Positions 1,899-7,401 of a DNA stretch of 64,000 nucleotides are shown here, piece by piece. The stretch's first letter is position 1. Each line of letters starts with the position of its first letter. Source of the stretch: Candidatus Uhrbacteria bacterium. GTDB lineage: Bacteria > Patescibacteriota > Patescibacteriia > UBA9934. The notes beneath the pieces are model-generated. The model was given only the letters and a program-made list of their open reading frames with translations. It had not been told where the DNA came from and ran no database searches. Both the position numbers and the translations under genes were made by a program. The stretch spans positions 14,902 through 78,901 of the forward strand of contig CALRCK010000003.1 of the NCBI GenBank assembly GCA_943354605.1, in the 5' to 3' direction.

Positions 1899-4733
1899 TT
1901 ATTTCCCATGACACTTCTTGAACTTCTTTCCACTTCCACAATGACATGGCTCGTTTGGACGAGGGTCCTTTGATGTGACGCTCTGGATCCCCGCCTGCGC
2001 GGGGATGACGGAGTCTGAAGGAATAGTGGCAGGATTCGATTCCTTCTTTTCTGCAGGCACATCAATCACTGTTGTTCCGCCGGAGGATTGTTGGGAGAGG
2101 AATTGAACGGCGTTGCGCATGAGCTGAGGAGCAGCTTCGAAGACGGCTTTTGCAGCGAGCTGTTGATCAATAATCTTGAAGAGGTTGTACGCCACTTCGC
2201 GGCCGAGTTCGGAGCGCATCGTGTTGTAGAGGCGGTAAGACTCGCGTTTGTATTCCACCAGCGGATCACGTTGAGCGTAGCCTTGAAGGCCGATAGTGCG
2301 GCGCAGGTACGTCATGTCATCAAGATGCTGCATCCAAAGTGTGTCGTTGGCGCGCAGCAAAATATTGCGTTCAAGCGCCATGAGATGTTTTGCATCGCCG
2401 AATTTTTCTACGGCACCGTCGTATGCGCGGCGAATCGCGCCGTTCACAATTTCAATGACGTGGCTACGCTGATGTGCGAGCTTTTCTTTATCAATGGAAA
2501 GCACCGAAAGCTCTTCACGAATCGCGGAAGACTCTGCGTCTTCGAGCTTCACGATTGCGCTCAAGCTCTCCACAATTTCCTGCGGATCCCAATCCGGCTT
2601 GCCCGTCGCCTCATCCTCAACGAAATCTTTTGGCACGTCGGCCTCTGCTTTGCTCGTATGGAAAAACACCACACGCTCAATTTCCTTTTCAATAATGGAA
2701 TGGACGAGCTCATGCGCCTTTGCTTCGCTCTTCATCACTTCTTTACGCTCGTTGTACACGGCGGTGCGATGCTTGTTCAGCACGTCGTCGTATTCCAACA
2801 CGTGCTTGCGGGTATCAAAGTGATGTCCTTCCACGCGTTGCTGAGACTTTTCGAGCGCACGCGTCACCATCTTGCTTTCGATTGGCGTGGAGTCGTCAAT
2901 GCCAAGTTTGTCCATCATCCCCTTCACGCGATCACTCCCGAAGATACGCATCAAATCGTCGTCGAGTGACACAAAGAATTGCGTGCTGCCCGGATCACCC
3001 TGACGGCCAGCGCGTCCGCGAAGCTGATTGTCGATGCGGCGCGATTCGTGGCGCTCGGTGCCGATCACGTGCAACCCGCCAAGTTTCTTCACATCCTCTG
3101 CCATTGCCGCATCCACCGGGTTTCCACCAAGCAAAATGTCCACGCCACGACCAGCCATGTTCGTTGCGAGAGTGACGGCACCCTTCCGACCAGCCTGCGC
3201 GATAATTTCACCTTCACGCTCGTGATTCTTTGCGTTCAACGTGTTGTGAACAATTCCCGCAGCAGTTAAAAACTTCGAAAGCGCCTCATTCTTCTCAATG
3301 GAAACGGTTCCGATGAGAACTGGTTGTCCGATTTCATTTAGGCGCTTCACCTCCTCAACCACCGCCATCCACTTCCCCATTTCATTTTTGTAAATACGGT
3401 CCGGCAAATCTTTACGTTTTGCTTCGTGGTTCGTTGGAATGGTGACGACGTCGAGCTTGTAAATCTTCGAAAACTCCTCCGCCTCTGTGGAAGCCGTTCC
3501 GGTCATGCCGGAAAGCTTTTCGTACATGCGGAAATAGTTTTGGAACGTAATCGTTGCGAGCGTCTTACTTTCACGCTGAATTTTCACGCCTTCTTTTGCT
3601 TCGATTGCTTGATGCAGACCTTCCGAATACCGGCGACCCTCCATGATGCGGCCAGTGAATTCGTCGACGATCACCACGTCGCCGCCACGAACCACGTAAT
3701 CGCGATCAATCTTAAACAACGAATGCGCCTTCAACGCTTGTTCCGCATGATGCACCATGGCAAGGCCTTCCTCGTACAAATTTTTCACGTTCAGCAAACG
3801 CTCCAACTTCTGCAAACCATTTTCGGTAAACGTGGAGACGCGCATCTTTTCGTCAATGTTGAAATCTTCACCCTCAACACAATGTTTGATGACGTCGGCG
3901 AAACGATAATACAAGTCTGCCGATTCCTGTGCCGCAGCAGAAATAATCAGCGGCGTGCGGGCTTCGTCGATGAGAATGGAGTCCACCTCGTCAACAATCG
4001 CGTAGTGTAATCCGCGTTGCACCACATCCTCAGCACGGCTCGCCATGTTGTCGCGCAAGTAATCAAAACCAAACTCGTTGTTTGTTCCATATGTAATGTC
4101 TGCAGCGTACGCTTCCGATCGCGACACTGGACGAAGCGAATCCGATGCAACGTGGAATCCCGCAACCGTCTCAGCACCTTCTGCTGGAGCTTCGACCTTA
4201 AAGTCTGCGTCGTACACGTAGCCACTTTCGTGCTGAATGCATCCAACGGTTAACCCAAGCGATGCAAACACGCGGCCCATCCATACAGAGTCGCGCTTTG
4301 CCAAGTAGTCGTTCACTGTTACCAAGTGCACGCCCTTTCCGGTGAGCGCGTTCAAATACGTTGGCGCGGTTGCGGTGAGTGTCTTTCCTTCACCCGTGCG
4401 CATTTCTGCGATCGAACCGCGATGCAACGTGAGTCCGCCCATCATCTGTACATCAAAATGACGCTGCCCCAGCACACGCTTGCTCGCTTCACGAACAACA
4501 GCAAACGCCTCATGCGCCATGGAATCGAGCGATTCACCGTTTGCGAGCCGCTCGCGGAACGCTTGTGTTTTCGCCTGTAACTCGTCGGCAGAAAGCGTTT
4601 TGAGGCCATCTTCAAAGGCGGCGATTTTCTCTGCATCTTTCCTGAGATTCTTCACTATTTTTGCGTTAGGATCACCGAAAATCGTGGAAAGGGAGAAGGC
4701 CATAGATGGCCAAATTATGCCTGATCTTCGCAA
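1899..4733 (-). CDS. secA: preprotein translocase ATPase SecA
   Basis: 944 aa. DEAD-like motor motifs (GEGKT, DEVDSILIDEARTPLIIS), SecA preprotein cross-linking and wing/scaffold regions, C-terminal zinc finger CHCGSGKKFKKCHGK. Contains an in-frame palindromic repeat insertion at 1983..2009. Confidence 0.97.
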   Translation of the reverse strand: MRRSGIIWPSMAFSLSTIFGDPNAKIVKNLRKDAEKIAAFEDGLKTLSADELQAKTQAFRERLANGESLDSMAHEAFAVVREASKRVLGQRHFDVQMMGGLTLHRGSIAEMRTGEGKTLTATAPTYLNALTGKGVHLVTVNDYLAKRDSVWMGRVFASLGLTVGCIQHESGYVYDADFKVEAPAEGAETVAGFHVASDSLRPVSRSEAYAADITYGTNNEFGFDYLRDNMASRAEDVVQRGLHYAIVDEVDSILIDEARTPLIISAAAQESADLYYRFADVIKHCVEGEDFNIDEKMRVSTFTENGLQKLERLLNVKNLYEEGLAMVHHAEQALKAHSLFKIDRDYVVRGGDVVIVDEFTGRIMEGRRYSEGLHQAIEAKEGVKIQRESKTLATITFQNYFRMYEKLSGMTGTASTEAEEFSKIYKLDVVTIPTNHEAKRKDLPDRIYKNEMGKWMAVVEEVKRLNEIGQPVLIGTVSIEKNEALSKFLTAAGIVHNTLNAKNHEREGEIIAQAGRKGAVTLATNMAGRGVDILLGGNPVDAAMAEDVKKLGGLHVIGTERHESRRIDNQLRGRAGRQGDPGSTQFFVSLDDDLMRIFGSDRVKGMMDKLGIDDSTPIESKMVTRALEKSQQRVEGHHFDTRKHVLEYDDVLNKHRTAVYNERKEVMKSEAKAHELVHSIIEKEIERVVFFHTSKAEADVPKDFVEDEATGKPDWDPQEIVESLSAIVKLEDAESSAIREELSVLSIDKEKLAHQRSHVIEIVNGAIRRAYDGAVEKFGDAKHLMALERNILLRANDTLWMQHLDDMTYLRRTIGLQGYAQRDPLVEYKRESYRLYNTMRSELGREVAYNLFKIIDQQLAAKAVFEAAPQLMRNAVQFLSQQSSGGTTVIDVPAEKKESNPATIPSDSVIPAQAGIQSVTSKDPRPNEPCHCGSGKKFKKCHGK
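1983..2009. repeat. family-1 palindromic element (GGATCCCCGCCTGCGCGGGGATGAC) inserted in frame in secA (encodes VIPAQAGIQ)
   Basis: 8-bp stem ATCCCCGC/GCGGGGAT around a 4-nt centre; same element at 17447, 43260, 56382, 56422, 62755. Confidence 0.8.
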
Positions 4734-4750
4734 TTTTCACAAGGAAACAA

Positions 4751-4769
4751 TGTTGACGAAAAGTCAAAA
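4751..4769 (+). promoter_or_regulatory. palindromic operator/promoter motif TGTTGACGAAAAGTCAAAA (copy 1)
   Basis: TTGAC-N5-GTCAA perfect inverted repeat containing a -35-like TTGACG; identical 19-mer recurs at 5324..5342 upstream of the next gene. Confidence 0.4.
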
Positions 4770-4771
4770 CT

Positions 4772-5197
4772 TTGCTAACCTTAGCGCGCCATTCAATGGG
4801 GGCACTCTTGGACACTCTTCTCGAAATGCTTCGTCGTCTCTTCCTCGGCTGTGACATTGAAGTCAGTCAATACGATGGAAAATCTCCGGTCCCGATCGTC
4901 ACGGGCAAGGGGCCCATCGAGGAGATCGGCCCCGGACCCAACCAAACCATCGTCGTGACGACGAAGTGGTTCGGGGAAATGAATCTCAAACAGGGCTCAC
5001 GGGAATACGTGGCTCGCGAGCCCGTGCCGATCGTGATCAAGATGGTGGAGAACATTCAGCCTGACGGCAGCGGAAGATTGATTATTCGCGGCACCGTCAA
5101 TGGAGGAGTGGTCATCATCGTCTTCTTCTCGAAGGCACGGGGGAACATGGATCCTGCAAAGGTCCGTGGAATCGACCCGAAGTTCCTCCGGCACTGA
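4772..5197 (+). CDS. hypothetical protein (cassette 1 of a twin-cassette pair)
   Basis: 141-aa ORF starting at TTG 4772; an in-frame ATG at 4796 (MGALLDTLL...) is an alternative start. No recognisable domain. Followed by hairpin terminator. Confidence 0.35.
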   Translation: MLTLARHSMGALLDTLLEMLRRLFLGCDIEVSQYDGKSPVPIVTGKGPIEEIGPGPNQTIVVTTKWFGEMNLKQGSREYVAREPVPIVIKMVENIQPDGSGRLIIRGTVNGGVVIIVFFSKARGNMDPAKVRGIDPKFLRH

Positions 5198-5225
5198 AAG
5201 TTCCTCTGGCACCGATCACGAACGC

Positions 5226-5270
5226 ACGCCGCCTCCCCGGAAGGGTGAAGGCGGCGTTGCTTATTTATTT
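5226..5270 (+). terminator. rho-independent terminator (copy 1 of a 39-bp duplicated sequence)
   Basis: ACGCCGCCT CCCCGGAAGGG TGAAGGCGGCGT stem-loop (9-bp outer stem plus inner CCC/GGG around GGAA loop) followed by TTGCTTATTTATTT. Identical 39 bp (5219..5257) recur at 5933..5971. Confidence 0.55.
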
Positions 5271-5323
5271 CACAAAATTCCGAACAACTATATCAATGAC
5301 GTCATATTCTTCTTAAGTAAAAC

Positions 5324-5342
5324 TGTTGACGAAAAGTCAAAA
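5324..5342 (+). promoter_or_regulatory. palindromic operator/promoter motif TGTTGACGAAAAGTCAAAA (copy 2)
   Basis: Exact repeat of 4751..4769; candidate -10 CAATAT 17 bp downstream of TTGACG; GGAGG RBS at 5366 precedes GTG start at 5376. Confidence 0.4.
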
Positions 5343-5375
5343 ATTGAGCAATATTTGTGCGCCACGGAGGGCACA

Positions 5376-5930
5376 GTGTCTACGATTTTTCCAGTCATGC
5401 TCATCGGCCTCAGCATCGTTGCCGTTGGGGAATTCCTGCTTCTCGTCGTCATCAGCGGGCACAAATACCGCGTGGAAAAGGATCGCCTCGCGTTCCTCAG
5501 CAAACTCGTGGCCGTGGTGAACAGTCATCGCGGCATGCGTAACAGCTATGCCGCAGGAGCACGACATACCTTACTGCTGTACATCCGATCACTGTACGGA
5601 ATCGAAAAAGCCGAAGCGCTGAGCGCATACATCAGTTGTATTGCGGCGGGGCACGCGTTCCCATCGGACCTCCCCTTCCTCGAGGACGAGAAGGCCGTCC
5701 GGAGCGTGATCCTCAAGCGCAGCGACGCACTCTGGAAAACGATTGCTGAAACAAGCAGTGTCAGTCAGACGTCGGCAGCGACGGCGGAAATGCTCGCATT
5801 CGCCGTTGGCATCATGCCGCCTTCCGACTTTGGCCGTCGCGAGCTGACCGCACAAGAACACAGCGCACTCTGCAGCCACTTCGGACCGCGCTCCGGCGGA
5901 CCACGCGTGCCACACCCCAACGCCAACTGA
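5376..5930 (+). CDS. hypothetical membrane-anchored protein (cassette 2)
   Basis: Track ORF 5100..5930 reads through the upstream terminator hairpin. Start reassigned to GTG 5376, 5 nt after GGAGG; alternative ATG at 5397. One N-terminal TM helix (MLIGLSIVAVGEFLLLVVI) then a soluble domain with no recognisable family. Confidence 0.4.
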   Translation: MSTIFPVMLIGLSIVAVGEFLLLVVISGHKYRVEKDRLAFLSKLVAVVNSHRGMRNSYAAGARHTLLLYIRSLYGIEKAEALSAYISCIAAGHAFPSDLPFLEDEKAVRSVILKRSDALWKTIAETSSVSQTSAATAEMLAFAVGIMPPSDFGRRELTAQEHSALCSHFGPRSGGPRVPHPNAN

Positions 5931-5939
5931 CGCGAACGC

Positions 5940-5980
5940 ACGCCGCCTCCCCGGAAGGGTGAAGGCGGCGTGGTGCATTT
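5940..5980. terminator. hairpin terminator (copy 2 of the 39-bp duplicated sequence), probably bidirectional
   Basis: Same GC-rich stem-loop as 5226..5257, positioned between the convergent cassette-2 gene (+) and murC (-). Confidence 0.5.
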
Positions 5981-7401
5981 TACCGGACCAAATTTCTCGC
6001 CACTGTATCAACATCTCCAGCGCCCATCACAATCACCACGTCATTTGGTTGAATCATTTCTCGGAGTTTTGCCTCGGCATCGATTACATCCTTCACGTAA
6101 AAACCTTCTTTCGGTGGATGTGCTGATTTCAGCACTGCATCAAGCAACGTTTTACTGGACACCGATTCGTCTCGCTCTTCTGTACGGCCGAGCACACCGT
6201 AAATTTCGGAAAGGATCAAAACGTCTGCGTCACCAAAGGATCCTGCAAAATCGGCAAAGAGTTCTTTGGTGCGATTATGCTGATGCGGTTCGAAAAGCAA
6301 CACGATTCGGTTCGCCGGAAAAAATTCTCGAGCACCGTCAAGCGTTCCTTTGATCGCGGACGGATGATGGCCGTAGTCCGAAATAATCTGCGCGCCGTTG
6401 AACGATCCAACGCGTTCAAATCGGCGCCAGATTCCAGAGAACGACTCCAGCGACTTCACAATACCCTCGAGCGCAATTCCATAATGCAATCCGATTTCCA
6501 TCGCGCCAAGCGCATTCATCATGTTGAATTCACCAGGAATATGTATCGCGAGTTCGCCGAGAACTTTTTCTGTGCTAAAAATCTTTCTCGTTCTTGCGGT
6601 CAGCGTGAGCGACTGTGTTCCATCATGAAACGTGCGCAAACGCTTTTTCAGTGGACCAATGTGAAAGAATGCAGGCGTGCCAAGCTCCATGCCGAAAAAT
6701 CGCAGCGATGCGGTTCCTTCTCCGCAATAGATGTGGCGATCTTGCTCGAACCAATTCTGAAATACCGTCTTCGACGTTTGTTCGCCAAGGCGATGAAACG
6801 CCGCTTCAACGTCCGCAAGATCTTTATAAATATCCGTATGGTCAAGCTCGATATTTGTGATCAGCGTCGTCTCTGGGTGAAGCTTCAACATCTTTCGCTT
6901 ATACTCATCACCTTCGATGATCAAGATATCACTCGCGCCGACCGCGACATTCCCATACTTCCATCCTGGCACGATCGATCCAACGAACACCGTTGGGTCA
7001 AGCCCGGCGTCGATGAAAATCTTTCCCGTCATCGCTGTTGTCGTCGATTTCCCGTTCGTTCCGGTGATACAGATTGTGCGGTAGTCTTTTGAGAGTTCAC
7101 CAAGAAAATCGAAATGTCCCATCTGCGGAATATTCCTCGCCTTTGCCGCCGCACGCTCCACATTCTCTTCCGTTGCCGCTTCGGTGTATACGATCAAATC
7201 GGTATTTGGTGGAATGTTCGCTGCGTCGTGCCCGATTGATACAGAAATTCCAAGATGAACGAGTCCATCGGTAGTCATCGACTGTTTTGCATCGCTTCCC
7301 GAAACCGAAATACCTTTTGCCAACAAAAACTTCATCACGCCACTGATGCCAATCCCTCCTGCGCCAATACAGTGGACGTGACAATACGAATCGAGCTGCA
7401 T
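5980..7401 (-). CDS. murC: UDP-N-acetylmuramate--L-alanine ligase
   Basis: 473 aa; N-terminal HVHCIGAGGIGISGV Rossmann motif, Mur ligase P-loop ITGTNGKSTTTAM, DHTDIY motif, C-terminal Mur ligase domain. Confidence 0.9.
   Translation of the reverse strand: MQLDSYCHVHCIGAGGIGISGVMKFLLAKGISVSGSDAKQSMTTDGLVHLGISVSIGHDAANIPPNTDLIVYTEAATEENVERAAAKARNIPQMGHFDFLGELSKDYRTICITGTNGKSTTTAMTGKIFIDAGLDPTVFVGSIVPGWKYGNVAVGASDILIIEGDEYKRKMLKLHPETTLITNIELDHTDIYKDLADVEAAFHRLGEQTSKTVFQNWFEQDRHIYCGEGTASLRFFGMELGTPAFFHIGPLKKRLRTFHDGTQSLTLTARTRKIFSTEKVLGELAIHIPGEFNMMNALGAMEIGLHYGIALEGIVKSLESFSGIWRRFERVGSFNGAQIISDYGHHPSAIKGTLDGAREFFPANRIVLLFEPHQHNRTKELFADFAGSFGDADVLILSEIYGVLGRTEERDESVSSKTLLDAVLKSAHPPKEGFYVKDVIDAEAKLREMIQPNDVVIVMGAGDVDTVARNLVR

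Follow-up and report, generated by a model that had tools for sequence, protein, structure and literature searches.

Two small orphan genes on the plus strand occupy the interval between the minus-strand genes secA (start codon ATG 4703) and murC (stop codon 5980-5982) in a 64,000-nucleotide stretch of contig CALRCK010000003.1 from a Candidatus Uhrbacteria bacterium (assembly GCA_943354605.1), which was analysed over its whole length and is referred to below as the window. Each gene is preceded by one copy of an identical 19-mer, TGTTGACGAAAAGTCAAAA, and followed by one copy of an identical 39-mer, CGAACGCACGCCGCCTCCCCGGAAGGGTGAAGGCGGCGT. Our interpretation, which we hold with moderate confidence, is that the locus is a tandem array of two self-contained single-gene units in a gene-turnover hotspot between murC and secA, that the promoter and terminator modules of these units have been copied and kept alike, and that the palindrome embedded in the 19-mer is accidental. 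The elements of the two units are listed here in the order of the forward strand (nt, nucleotides; aa, amino acids; TM, transmembrane).

4746..4791, plus strand: predicted promoter module P1, with -35 box TTGACG at 4753-4758, a 17-nt spacer and -10 box TAACCT at 4776-4781; contains the first 19-mer (4751-4769) and its dyad
4796..5197, plus strand: gene 1, coding for a soluble orphan protein of 133 aa from ATG 4796, or of 129 aa from TTG 4808
5219..5270, plus strand: putative terminator T1, with the 39-mer core at 5219-5257 and a hairpin at about 5224-5260, followed by UUAUUUAUUU
5319..5364, plus strand: predicted promoter module P2, with -35 box TTGACG at 5326-5331 and -10 box AATATT at 5350-5355; contains the second 19-mer (5324-5342)
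5376..5930, plus strand: gene 2, coding for an orphan protein of 184 aa with GTG start, an N-terminal TM helix and an all-helical remainder
5933..5982, plus strand: putative terminator T2, with the 39-mer core at 5933-5971, a hairpin at about 5936-5974 and the tail AUUUUACC

Repeated promoter and terminator modules

The twin 19-mers and twin 39-mers described in an initial annotation of this DNA were found at the positions given there, each in exactly two copies in the window. No further copies turned up in 64 kb with up to three mismatches, either of the 19-mer (0.01 expected) or of the 39-mer (0.00 expected); within this genome, the motif searches covered the 64-kb window and 5.2 kb upstream of it in the assembly L002 (handles of this kind denote the contigs and loci used for comparison). 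The similarity between copies extends beyond the exact cores, reaching 46 nt at 76% identity for the promoters (4746-4791 versus 5319-5364) and 48 nt at 92% for the terminators (5219-5266 versus 5933-5980). On the promoter side the similarity includes the region between the -10 box and the start codon, with GCGCCA and a GG(A/G)GG Shine-Dalgarno sequence that stands about 5 nt before both TTG 4808 and GTG 5376.

The two-copy layout is not an assembly artefact, as the pairs of 19-mers and 39-mers are present with the same layout in two further assemblies. L002 shows no mismatches to the window over 15.2 kb and carries both copies, and L003, a contig of another sample, likewise carries both copies of both repeats. 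A short contig, L004, ends inside the first copy of the 39-mer (T1), which is the kind of break that a repeat would cause.

A -35-like TTGACG had already been noticed inside the 19-mer, and comparison with related loci supports this assignment. Eight promoter copies were aligned, to which the window, L005 and L019 contribute two each and L001 and L006 one each. Across these five genomes, GTTGACGA, two adenines of the spacer, and the A and T at positions 2 and 6 of the -10 box are the same in every copy, and the rest of the spacer varies. Such invariance at -35 and -10 is the pattern expected for a promoter of the sigma-70 type, of which the 19-mer is predicted to carry the -35 box. P2 was found by a promoter consensus scan (9 of 12 matches). 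Its AATATT box lies at a spacing of 18 nt, with CAATAT as an alternative -10 box at 17 nt; GCGCCA and, at 5366-5370, the Shine-Dalgarno sequence GGAGG come next. P1 was read directly from the sequence; its TTGACG matches five of the six consensus positions, and A2 and T6 are present in its TAACCT.

Two other palindromes lie near these promoters. A second dyad, GCTAA-NN-TTAGC, encloses the -10 box of the secA-proximal promoter (4773-4784 in the window, and in the P1 copies of L001, L005, L006 and L019). It is extended to GCGCTAA-TC-TTAGCGC in L005, is near-perfect in L019 and is absent from P2; it is better conserved than the TTGAC/GTCAA dyad of the 19-mer, and could be either a real operator or a constraint of the -10 box. 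A perfect palindrome of 10 base pairs (bp), ATGACGTCAT, is found at 5296-5305 in the spacer between T1 and P2, with its centre about 61 nt upstream of the predicted start of P2. It is probably meaningless, since by our estimate chance alone would produce about 60 palindromes of this kind in 64 kb.

The 39-mer had been described as a terminator hairpin, and both copies indeed form GC-rich folds, of -29.2 kcal/mol for T1 and -30.8 kcal/mol for T2 (81-nt windows). The cores start 22 nt (T1) and 3 nt (T2) after the respective stop codons. In T1 the extended stem is followed by a good U-rich tract, UUAUUUAUUU. T2 abuts the stop codon of murC, and is thus situated between two convergent genes. Both T1 and T2 fall below the strict terminator rule of the scan; the tails in relatives often read UGnUGCGUUUU. 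Hairpins with the same base, CGCC(G/A)CC...GG(C/T)GGCG, were identified in L001 (two), L005 (two), L006 (one), L007 (two, one of them a variant), L013 (one), L017 (three) and L019 (two), each directly after a small open reading frame (ORF) on the plus strand in window orientation, 2-35 nt past its stop codon, and followed by a T-rich run. Wherever this base motif forms a hairpin in the 64-kb window or in the scanned Uhrbacteria-type loci (each about 7-13 kb long), the hairpin falls in the murC-secA spacer; the sole match elsewhere is in a distant locus labelled Saccharibacteria (L028). In all, 16 hairpins of eight genomes have this base in common, and compensating changes accompany the variation of their tips.

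RNAalifold analysis of 15 of these hairpins yielded a consensus stem of 9 bp with a variable tip, in which three pairs show double compensatory changes. A covariance model built on this alignment, R1, recovered all training hairpins, assigned 52.8 bits to T1 and 51.3 bits to T2, and found a copy in L016 (35.9 bits) on which it had not been trained. Outside the spacers no R1 match exceeded 20 bits, and in the remainder of the window none exceeded 13.3 bits; Rfam contained no match to the hairpin family. These results point to the 39-mer as the core of a putative, locus-specific family of intrinsic-terminator hairpins. A search of metagenomes with the hairpin pattern gave 48 matches; the contigs were all GC-rich (56-74% GC) and had neither murC nor secA nor gene 2 in the vicinity, and the matches were therefore set aside as due to chance or as generic terminators. 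Near T1, an 18-nt tandem duplication spans the stop codon of gene 1 (5180-5215: AAGTTCCTCCGGCACTGA followed by AAGTTCCTCTGGCACCGA); the stop codon is lost in the second copy, and the duplication, which looks like a slippage event, lengthens the gap between the gene 1 stop codon and T1.

Arrays of similar units in related Uhrbacteria

The proposal that the locus is built of modular cassettes has gained support from the comparison of genomes: related Uhrbacteria have one to three such units, each made up of a promoter, a small ORF and a hairpin, in the corresponding murC-secA interval, with different cargo. L001, a Logan contig, has the two-cassette layout of the window, in which a gene 1 homologue comes first and a probable gene 2 second. 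L005, which is about as distant from the window as L001 is (about 81% versus 78% identity over MurC, the SecA N-terminus and HPF), also has two units, the ORFs of which (40 and 113 aa) show no significant similarity to gene 1 or gene 2. The single unit of L006 encodes a hydrophobic TM peptide of 38 aa. L019 contains two units, in which the ORFs are of the TM-plus-helical kind, the promoters are similar and the hairpins nearly identical, and L017 three units with a promoter variant of their own, two of the ORFs being clear paralogs (36% identity, E 5e-24). The unit arrays of L017 and L019 indicate that whole promoter/ORF/terminator units duplicate in tandem at this locus.

The gene order hpf-murC-spacer-secA is retained in about 17 of the 24 loci obtained by a MurC scan of genome collections, in which the size of the murC-secA spacer ranges from 115 bp to 3.9 kb; tblastn with gene 1 and gene 2 gave no matches in these 24 loci.

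Other inhabitants of the spacer were also observed. Cassettes for peptides of 38-61 aa are found in L006 (spacer positions 134-250), L017 (1416-1601) and L005 (161-283); two of the peptides are strongly hydrophobic (e.g. MNVALVIGVVGFFAVLLTVALLFG...) and recall type I toxins or small membrane proteins. Small DUF559 genes (Vsr-like endonuclease fold) occur in the murC-secA spacer of L001 (1954-2410), L006 (7434-7899), L010 (7302-7712) and L008, and not in that of the window. Those of L001, L006 and L010 are flanked by hairpins of the CTCCCCCTTGAAAAGGGGGAG type, and the DUF559 genes give the impression of a separate selfish element that exploits this hotspot as well. The L019 spacer, in window-like orientation, contains at least four occurrences of a REP-like element, CCCCTCCTCCCCGAGGAGGGGCTAGGGGTGGTG and variants of it (about 105-145, 885-945, 1655-1690 and 2165-2200), which lies directly upstream of both L019 promoter copies.

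Likeness of the flanking modules within genomes

The terminators of one genome resemble each other more than they resemble those of other genomes. Identity within genomes is 0.91 in the window, 0.90 in L001, 0.93 in L019 and 0.67-0.84 in L017, against a maximum of 0.80 between genomes, and in 20,000 random reassignments of genome labels the within-genome mean was never as high as the observed one (p<5e-5). The two-unit layout probably predates the split of the window and L001 lineages, as gene 1 and the probable gene 2 are shared in the same order; each of the two genomes nevertheless has its own hairpin sequence at both positions. The simplest account would be that the hairpins were homogenised after this split, by gene conversion or by unequal recombination between direct repeats, and the exact copy of the promoter spacer in the window may be explained in the same way. 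In L001 the second promoter is degenerate and overlaps the tail of the first terminator, which fits a lineage-specific copying of P1 to the position before gene 2 in the window.

The two orphan genes

Both ORFs delimited in the initial annotation (4772 or 4796 to 5197, and 5376 to 5930) exist, and the analysis agrees with its description of their products as mutually unrelated (BLASTP E=36), one being soluble and the other having an N-terminal TM helix. Gene 1 probably starts at TTG 4808, giving a protein of 129 aa, because this codon aligns with the ATG of a homologue of 129 aa and follows a GGGGG Shine-Dalgarno sequence (4798-4802). For its product, an N-terminal helix plus a beta-barrel are predicted. 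The single-sequence AlphaFold2 model of the gene 2 protein reached a pLDDT of 39.7 and was set aside for fold comparison.

Gene 1 and gene 2 are real and native genes, as judged from codon usage at the genome mean and from the absence of viral relatives. The codon-usage log-odds amount to 0.25 bits per codon for gene 1 and 0.23 for gene 2, compared to a mean of 0.232 for 26 long genes of the window, and minus-strand ORFs that overlap gene 2 score 0 or below. One public annotation replaces gene 2 by two minus-strand ORFs, at 5337-5567 (76 aa) and 5589-6014 (141 aa), and another calls gene 2 as a protein of 177 aa; codon usage favours the plus-strand gene over the minus-strand ORFs.

That the proteins lie outside known families was corroborated, as neither has a match in Pfam, PADLOC, PHROGs or NCBIfam. 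A word-indexed search of 5.8 billion proteins returned only self-matches and one gene 1 homologue with 45% identity. Among 1.84 billion representatives, an exhaustive hidden Markov model (HMM) search yielded just one more match, a weak one to a repeat protein (P0004, E 3e-5), which was judged uninformative. Alignment scans of genome and metagenome collections with gene 1 gave no match, nor did viral scans with gene 1, gene 2 and the promoter pattern.

The gene 1 homologue of L001 is 45% identical to gene 1. The L001 counterpart of gene 2 occupies the same position on the plus strand, has an N-terminal TM helix and shares 24% identity with it (pairwise E 0.003); MurC of the window and L001 are 77% identical. 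TM-plus-helical ORFs of L017 and L019 resemble gene 2, and with gene 2 and its L001 counterpart they share a weak motif in addition to their architecture. Profile searches of 280 spacer ORFs, in which one member of this group was left out at a time, ranked the left-out member first among the non-training ORFs in every case; the E-values were weak (1e-4 to 0.5), which is no more than suggestive of a gene 2 family that extends to L017 and L019. A wider gene 1 family with ORF2 of L007 and the ORFs of L013 and L015 is likewise suggestive only; here the left-out member was not consistently first.

A model for the origin of the locus

We propose that in each unit a promoter of the sigma-70 type (TTGACG, 17-18 nt, a TAnnnT-like -10 box) would drive a single fast-evolving orphan ORF through a leader of about 25 nt (GCGCCA ... 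GGRGG, about 5 nt, start codon), and that the GC-rich hairpin with its U-rich tail would serve as the intrinsic terminator of that unit. P1 would fire away from secA, back-to-back with the secA promoter, and T2 would at the same time be placed against the end of the convergent murC gene. The modules may have spread by local duplication or promoter reuse, after which the copies would have been kept alike by short-tract gene conversion or by unequal recombination between direct repeats. The dyad TTGAC-N5-GTCAA would then be a lineage-specific accident of the spacer that was copied along with the promoter. According to this model, the two promoters and the two terminators are alike since they are copies of each other, and not because a palindrome-binding regulator needs them to be. 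A mechanism of this kind, in which modules are duplicated and evolve in concert while ORFs turn over fast, is ordinary; the arrangement itself is unusual and is restricted to this lineage.

Several observations weigh against this interpretation. The hairpin pairs of L005 and L007 are dissimilar (0.48 and 0.43), so that homogenisation is not universal. Promoter identity in the window is patchy, with 19 of 19 positions followed by about 60% across the -10 region, and selection may act on the 19-mer in this lineage. The TAACCT box of P1 matches just three of the six consensus positions, the U-tract of T2 is short and weak (UGGUGCAUUUU), and the scan listed neither P1, T1 nor T2. The transcription start and stop sites are predicted only, and gene conversion as the homogenising process, like any function of the proteins, is something that we infer rather than directly observe. 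Finally, none of the roughly 20 relatives examined is very close.

Alternative explanations

The units could instead form a docking slot, or gene nursery, in which the promoter-leader-Shine-Dalgarno module and the hairpin module, kept across species, act as fixed homology arms or recombination sites, and in which ORFs are swapped among Uhrbacteria, or are born de novo, and are expressed at once. Such a slot, in a minimal-genome bacterium, would be integron-like but integrase-free, allowing recombinase-independent duplication, loss and exchange of cassettes. Among genomes that are about equally related (76-81% identity over MurC, the SecA N-terminus and HPF), frames in corresponding positions enclose ORFs that are unrelated: the frame from P1 to T1 contains gene 1 in the window and L001, the 40-aa ORF in L005 and the 38-aa TM peptide in L006. 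The similarity between copies reaches the start codon and returns a few nt past the stop codon, and the locus-confined hairpin, with its conserved base and variable tip, resembles attC sites. However, the codon usage of both genes is native, the 5.8 billion proteins and the scans of genomes, metagenomes and viruses contained neither gene in another context, no recombinase-type Pfam family was found within 10 kb, and deletion combined with fast divergence could give the same pattern. We regard the docking slot as unlikely.

The comparison with integrons bears directly on this possibility. Integron cassettes are generally promoterless and are expressed from Pc, and their attC sites contain R''/R' cores (RYYYAAC ... 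GTTRRRY). The murC-secA array resembles them in that its small ORFs are unrelated, that an imperfect hairpin, conserved at the base and variable in the centre, stands behind each ORF, and that the cargo differs among relatives. It differs in that the hairpins are shorter (about 35-45 nt) and end in a U-tract, and in that each ORF has its own TTGACG promoter. An integron array was rejected on the latter ground and because no integrase-type Pfam family is present within 10 kb; the hairpin flanks (CGAACGCA ... GTTGCTT / GTGGTGC) also do not fit the attC cores by inspection, no dedicated attC model having been run.

A different explanation, put forward in the initial annotation, is that the dyad is a palindromic operator at which a dimeric repressor or activator (TetR/MarR/FadR-like) co-regulates both genes as a regulon. 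The dyad is perfect in both window copies (5+5) and overlaps the -35 box, and 19 nt of identical sequence reaching into the spacer is more than an ordinary promoter needs. The right half-site, however, varies among the related promoters: GTCAA is found in the window only, and is replaced by GCCAA in L001 and by GCCGG or CCTAA in L005 and L006, and is lost in L019, so that the operator is not supported. Allowing one mismatch, a search for the dyad recovered only the two sites of the window, with 3.3 expected by chance, and no other 19-mer-like sites were found in the 64 kb. As both copies trace to one copying event, the dyad counts only once, and we put the probability that such a dyad arises by chance at about 1e-2. 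No Pfam family of the DNA-binding-regulator type was found within 10 kb on either side, where several genes are without any Pfam hit. According to the initial annotation, its interpretation of the locus would fail if the motifs were confined to this place and the ORFs were not conserved; the former applies, as the motifs are confined to the locus, but the latter does not, since gene 1, and more weakly gene 2, is conserved in one relative (L001). Taken together, these comparisons suggest that the palindrome is most likely an accident and not a regulator site, and we consider a regulon of this kind to be quite improbable.

It is also conceivable, albeit very improbable in our judgement, that the hairpin is more than a terminator, namely a sequence-specific RNA element common to the transcripts of the locus, for example one that is bound by an RNA-binding protein or acts as a signal for processing or stability; the gene 1 product, which is predicted to be Sm-like, might then be its binder. 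An assembly or annotation artefact, in the form of a collapsed or chimeric repeat around non-coding ORFs, deserves next to no credence: one gene caller reads the gene 2 region as two minus-strand ORFs and one short contig stops inside T1, but the same sequence with both copies was recovered in two further assemblies, one of them from another sample, a relative has the same layout in diverged sequence, and the plus-strand frames have genome-typical codon usage.

Comparison with known systems

Gene-turnover hotspots between core genes are a known pattern of comparative genomics. The murC-secA interval shares with them a fixed position, lineage-specific content and unrelated insertions (the DUF559 genes), and differs in that its genes are framed by conserved, locus-specific promoter and terminator modules and are not mobile-element genes or tRNA-linked islands.

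The LDR (ldr/rdl) type I toxin-antitoxin repeats of Escherichia coli are arranged head to tail in units of a few hundred bp; each unit has a promoter and a terminator of its own and is transcribed independently, yielding a small and often membrane-targeted protein, and the copy number differs among relatives. The tandem layout and the repeated regulatory sequences are similar. Type I toxins are much smaller than the soluble gene 1 product (129-133 aa) and the gene 2 product (184 aa), which are also unrelated to each other, and no antisense RNA gene is evident at the locus. Of the encoded proteins, only the TM peptides of 38-61 aa in L006 and L017 are reminiscent of type I toxins.

Extragenic palindromes of the REP/REPIN and MITE type are present in many dispersed copies per genome. 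The hairpins resemble these in being GC-rich imperfect palindromes just downstream of genes and repeated in the genome, but they are not in the paired inverted (REPIN) form. A REP or MITE origin was rejected, since there are only two copies in 64 kb, both at one locus and not dispersed.

The closest concept is that of putative mobile promoters (Matus-Garcia, Nijveen & van Passel 2012, PMC3488235), in which similar upstream regulatory sequences precede non-homologous genes of one genome, a finding that was read as promoter propagation. The present locus shows the same kind of phenomenon, with several differences. The similar stretch, 46 nt at 76% (19 nt exact), is under the published threshold of 50-100 nt at 80% identity or more; the copies are adjacent and not dispersed; the terminator is copied as well; and the modules recur at the same locus in other species.

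Genomic context

Downstream of murC, the genes hpf (encoding a ribosome-hibernation factor) and murB are located on the minus strand. On the other side of the locus, the promoter scan identified a divergent promoter adjoining P1:

4714..4742, minus strand: predicted secA promoter (TTGTGA, 17 nt, CATAAT), back-to-back with P1

This promoter block is also present upstream of secA in the closer relatives L001, L005-L008 and L016, and in diverged form in L010, L012 and L019. Its -10 box (CATAAT, 4719-4714) lies only 10 nt from ATG 4703, so that the secA mRNA would be nearly leaderless. Rfam gave only four tRNAs across the window, and no credible match in 4600-6100. In the literature we found no account of Uhrbacteria promoters or terminators, nor of the murC-secA locus.

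Significance

Bacteria of the Candidate Phyla Radiation have tiny genomes and almost no characterised regulatory DNA. The locus described here supplies a predicted Uhrbacteria promoter (TTGACG-17-TAnnnT with a GCGCCA...GGAGG leader) and a putative terminator family, both validated by comparison between genomes. It also defines a hotspot of small orphan proteins, several with a membrane anchor, whose turnover is much faster than that of their housekeeping neighbours, as is seen between two genomes in the identities of gene 1 (45%) and gene 2 (about 24%) compared to MurC (77%). If it is true that the frames promote the exchange of ORFs or the birth of genes, the locus would be a tractable model for the creation and testing of new genes in reduced genomes; if they do not, it would be a clean case of promoter and terminator reuse with concerted evolution.

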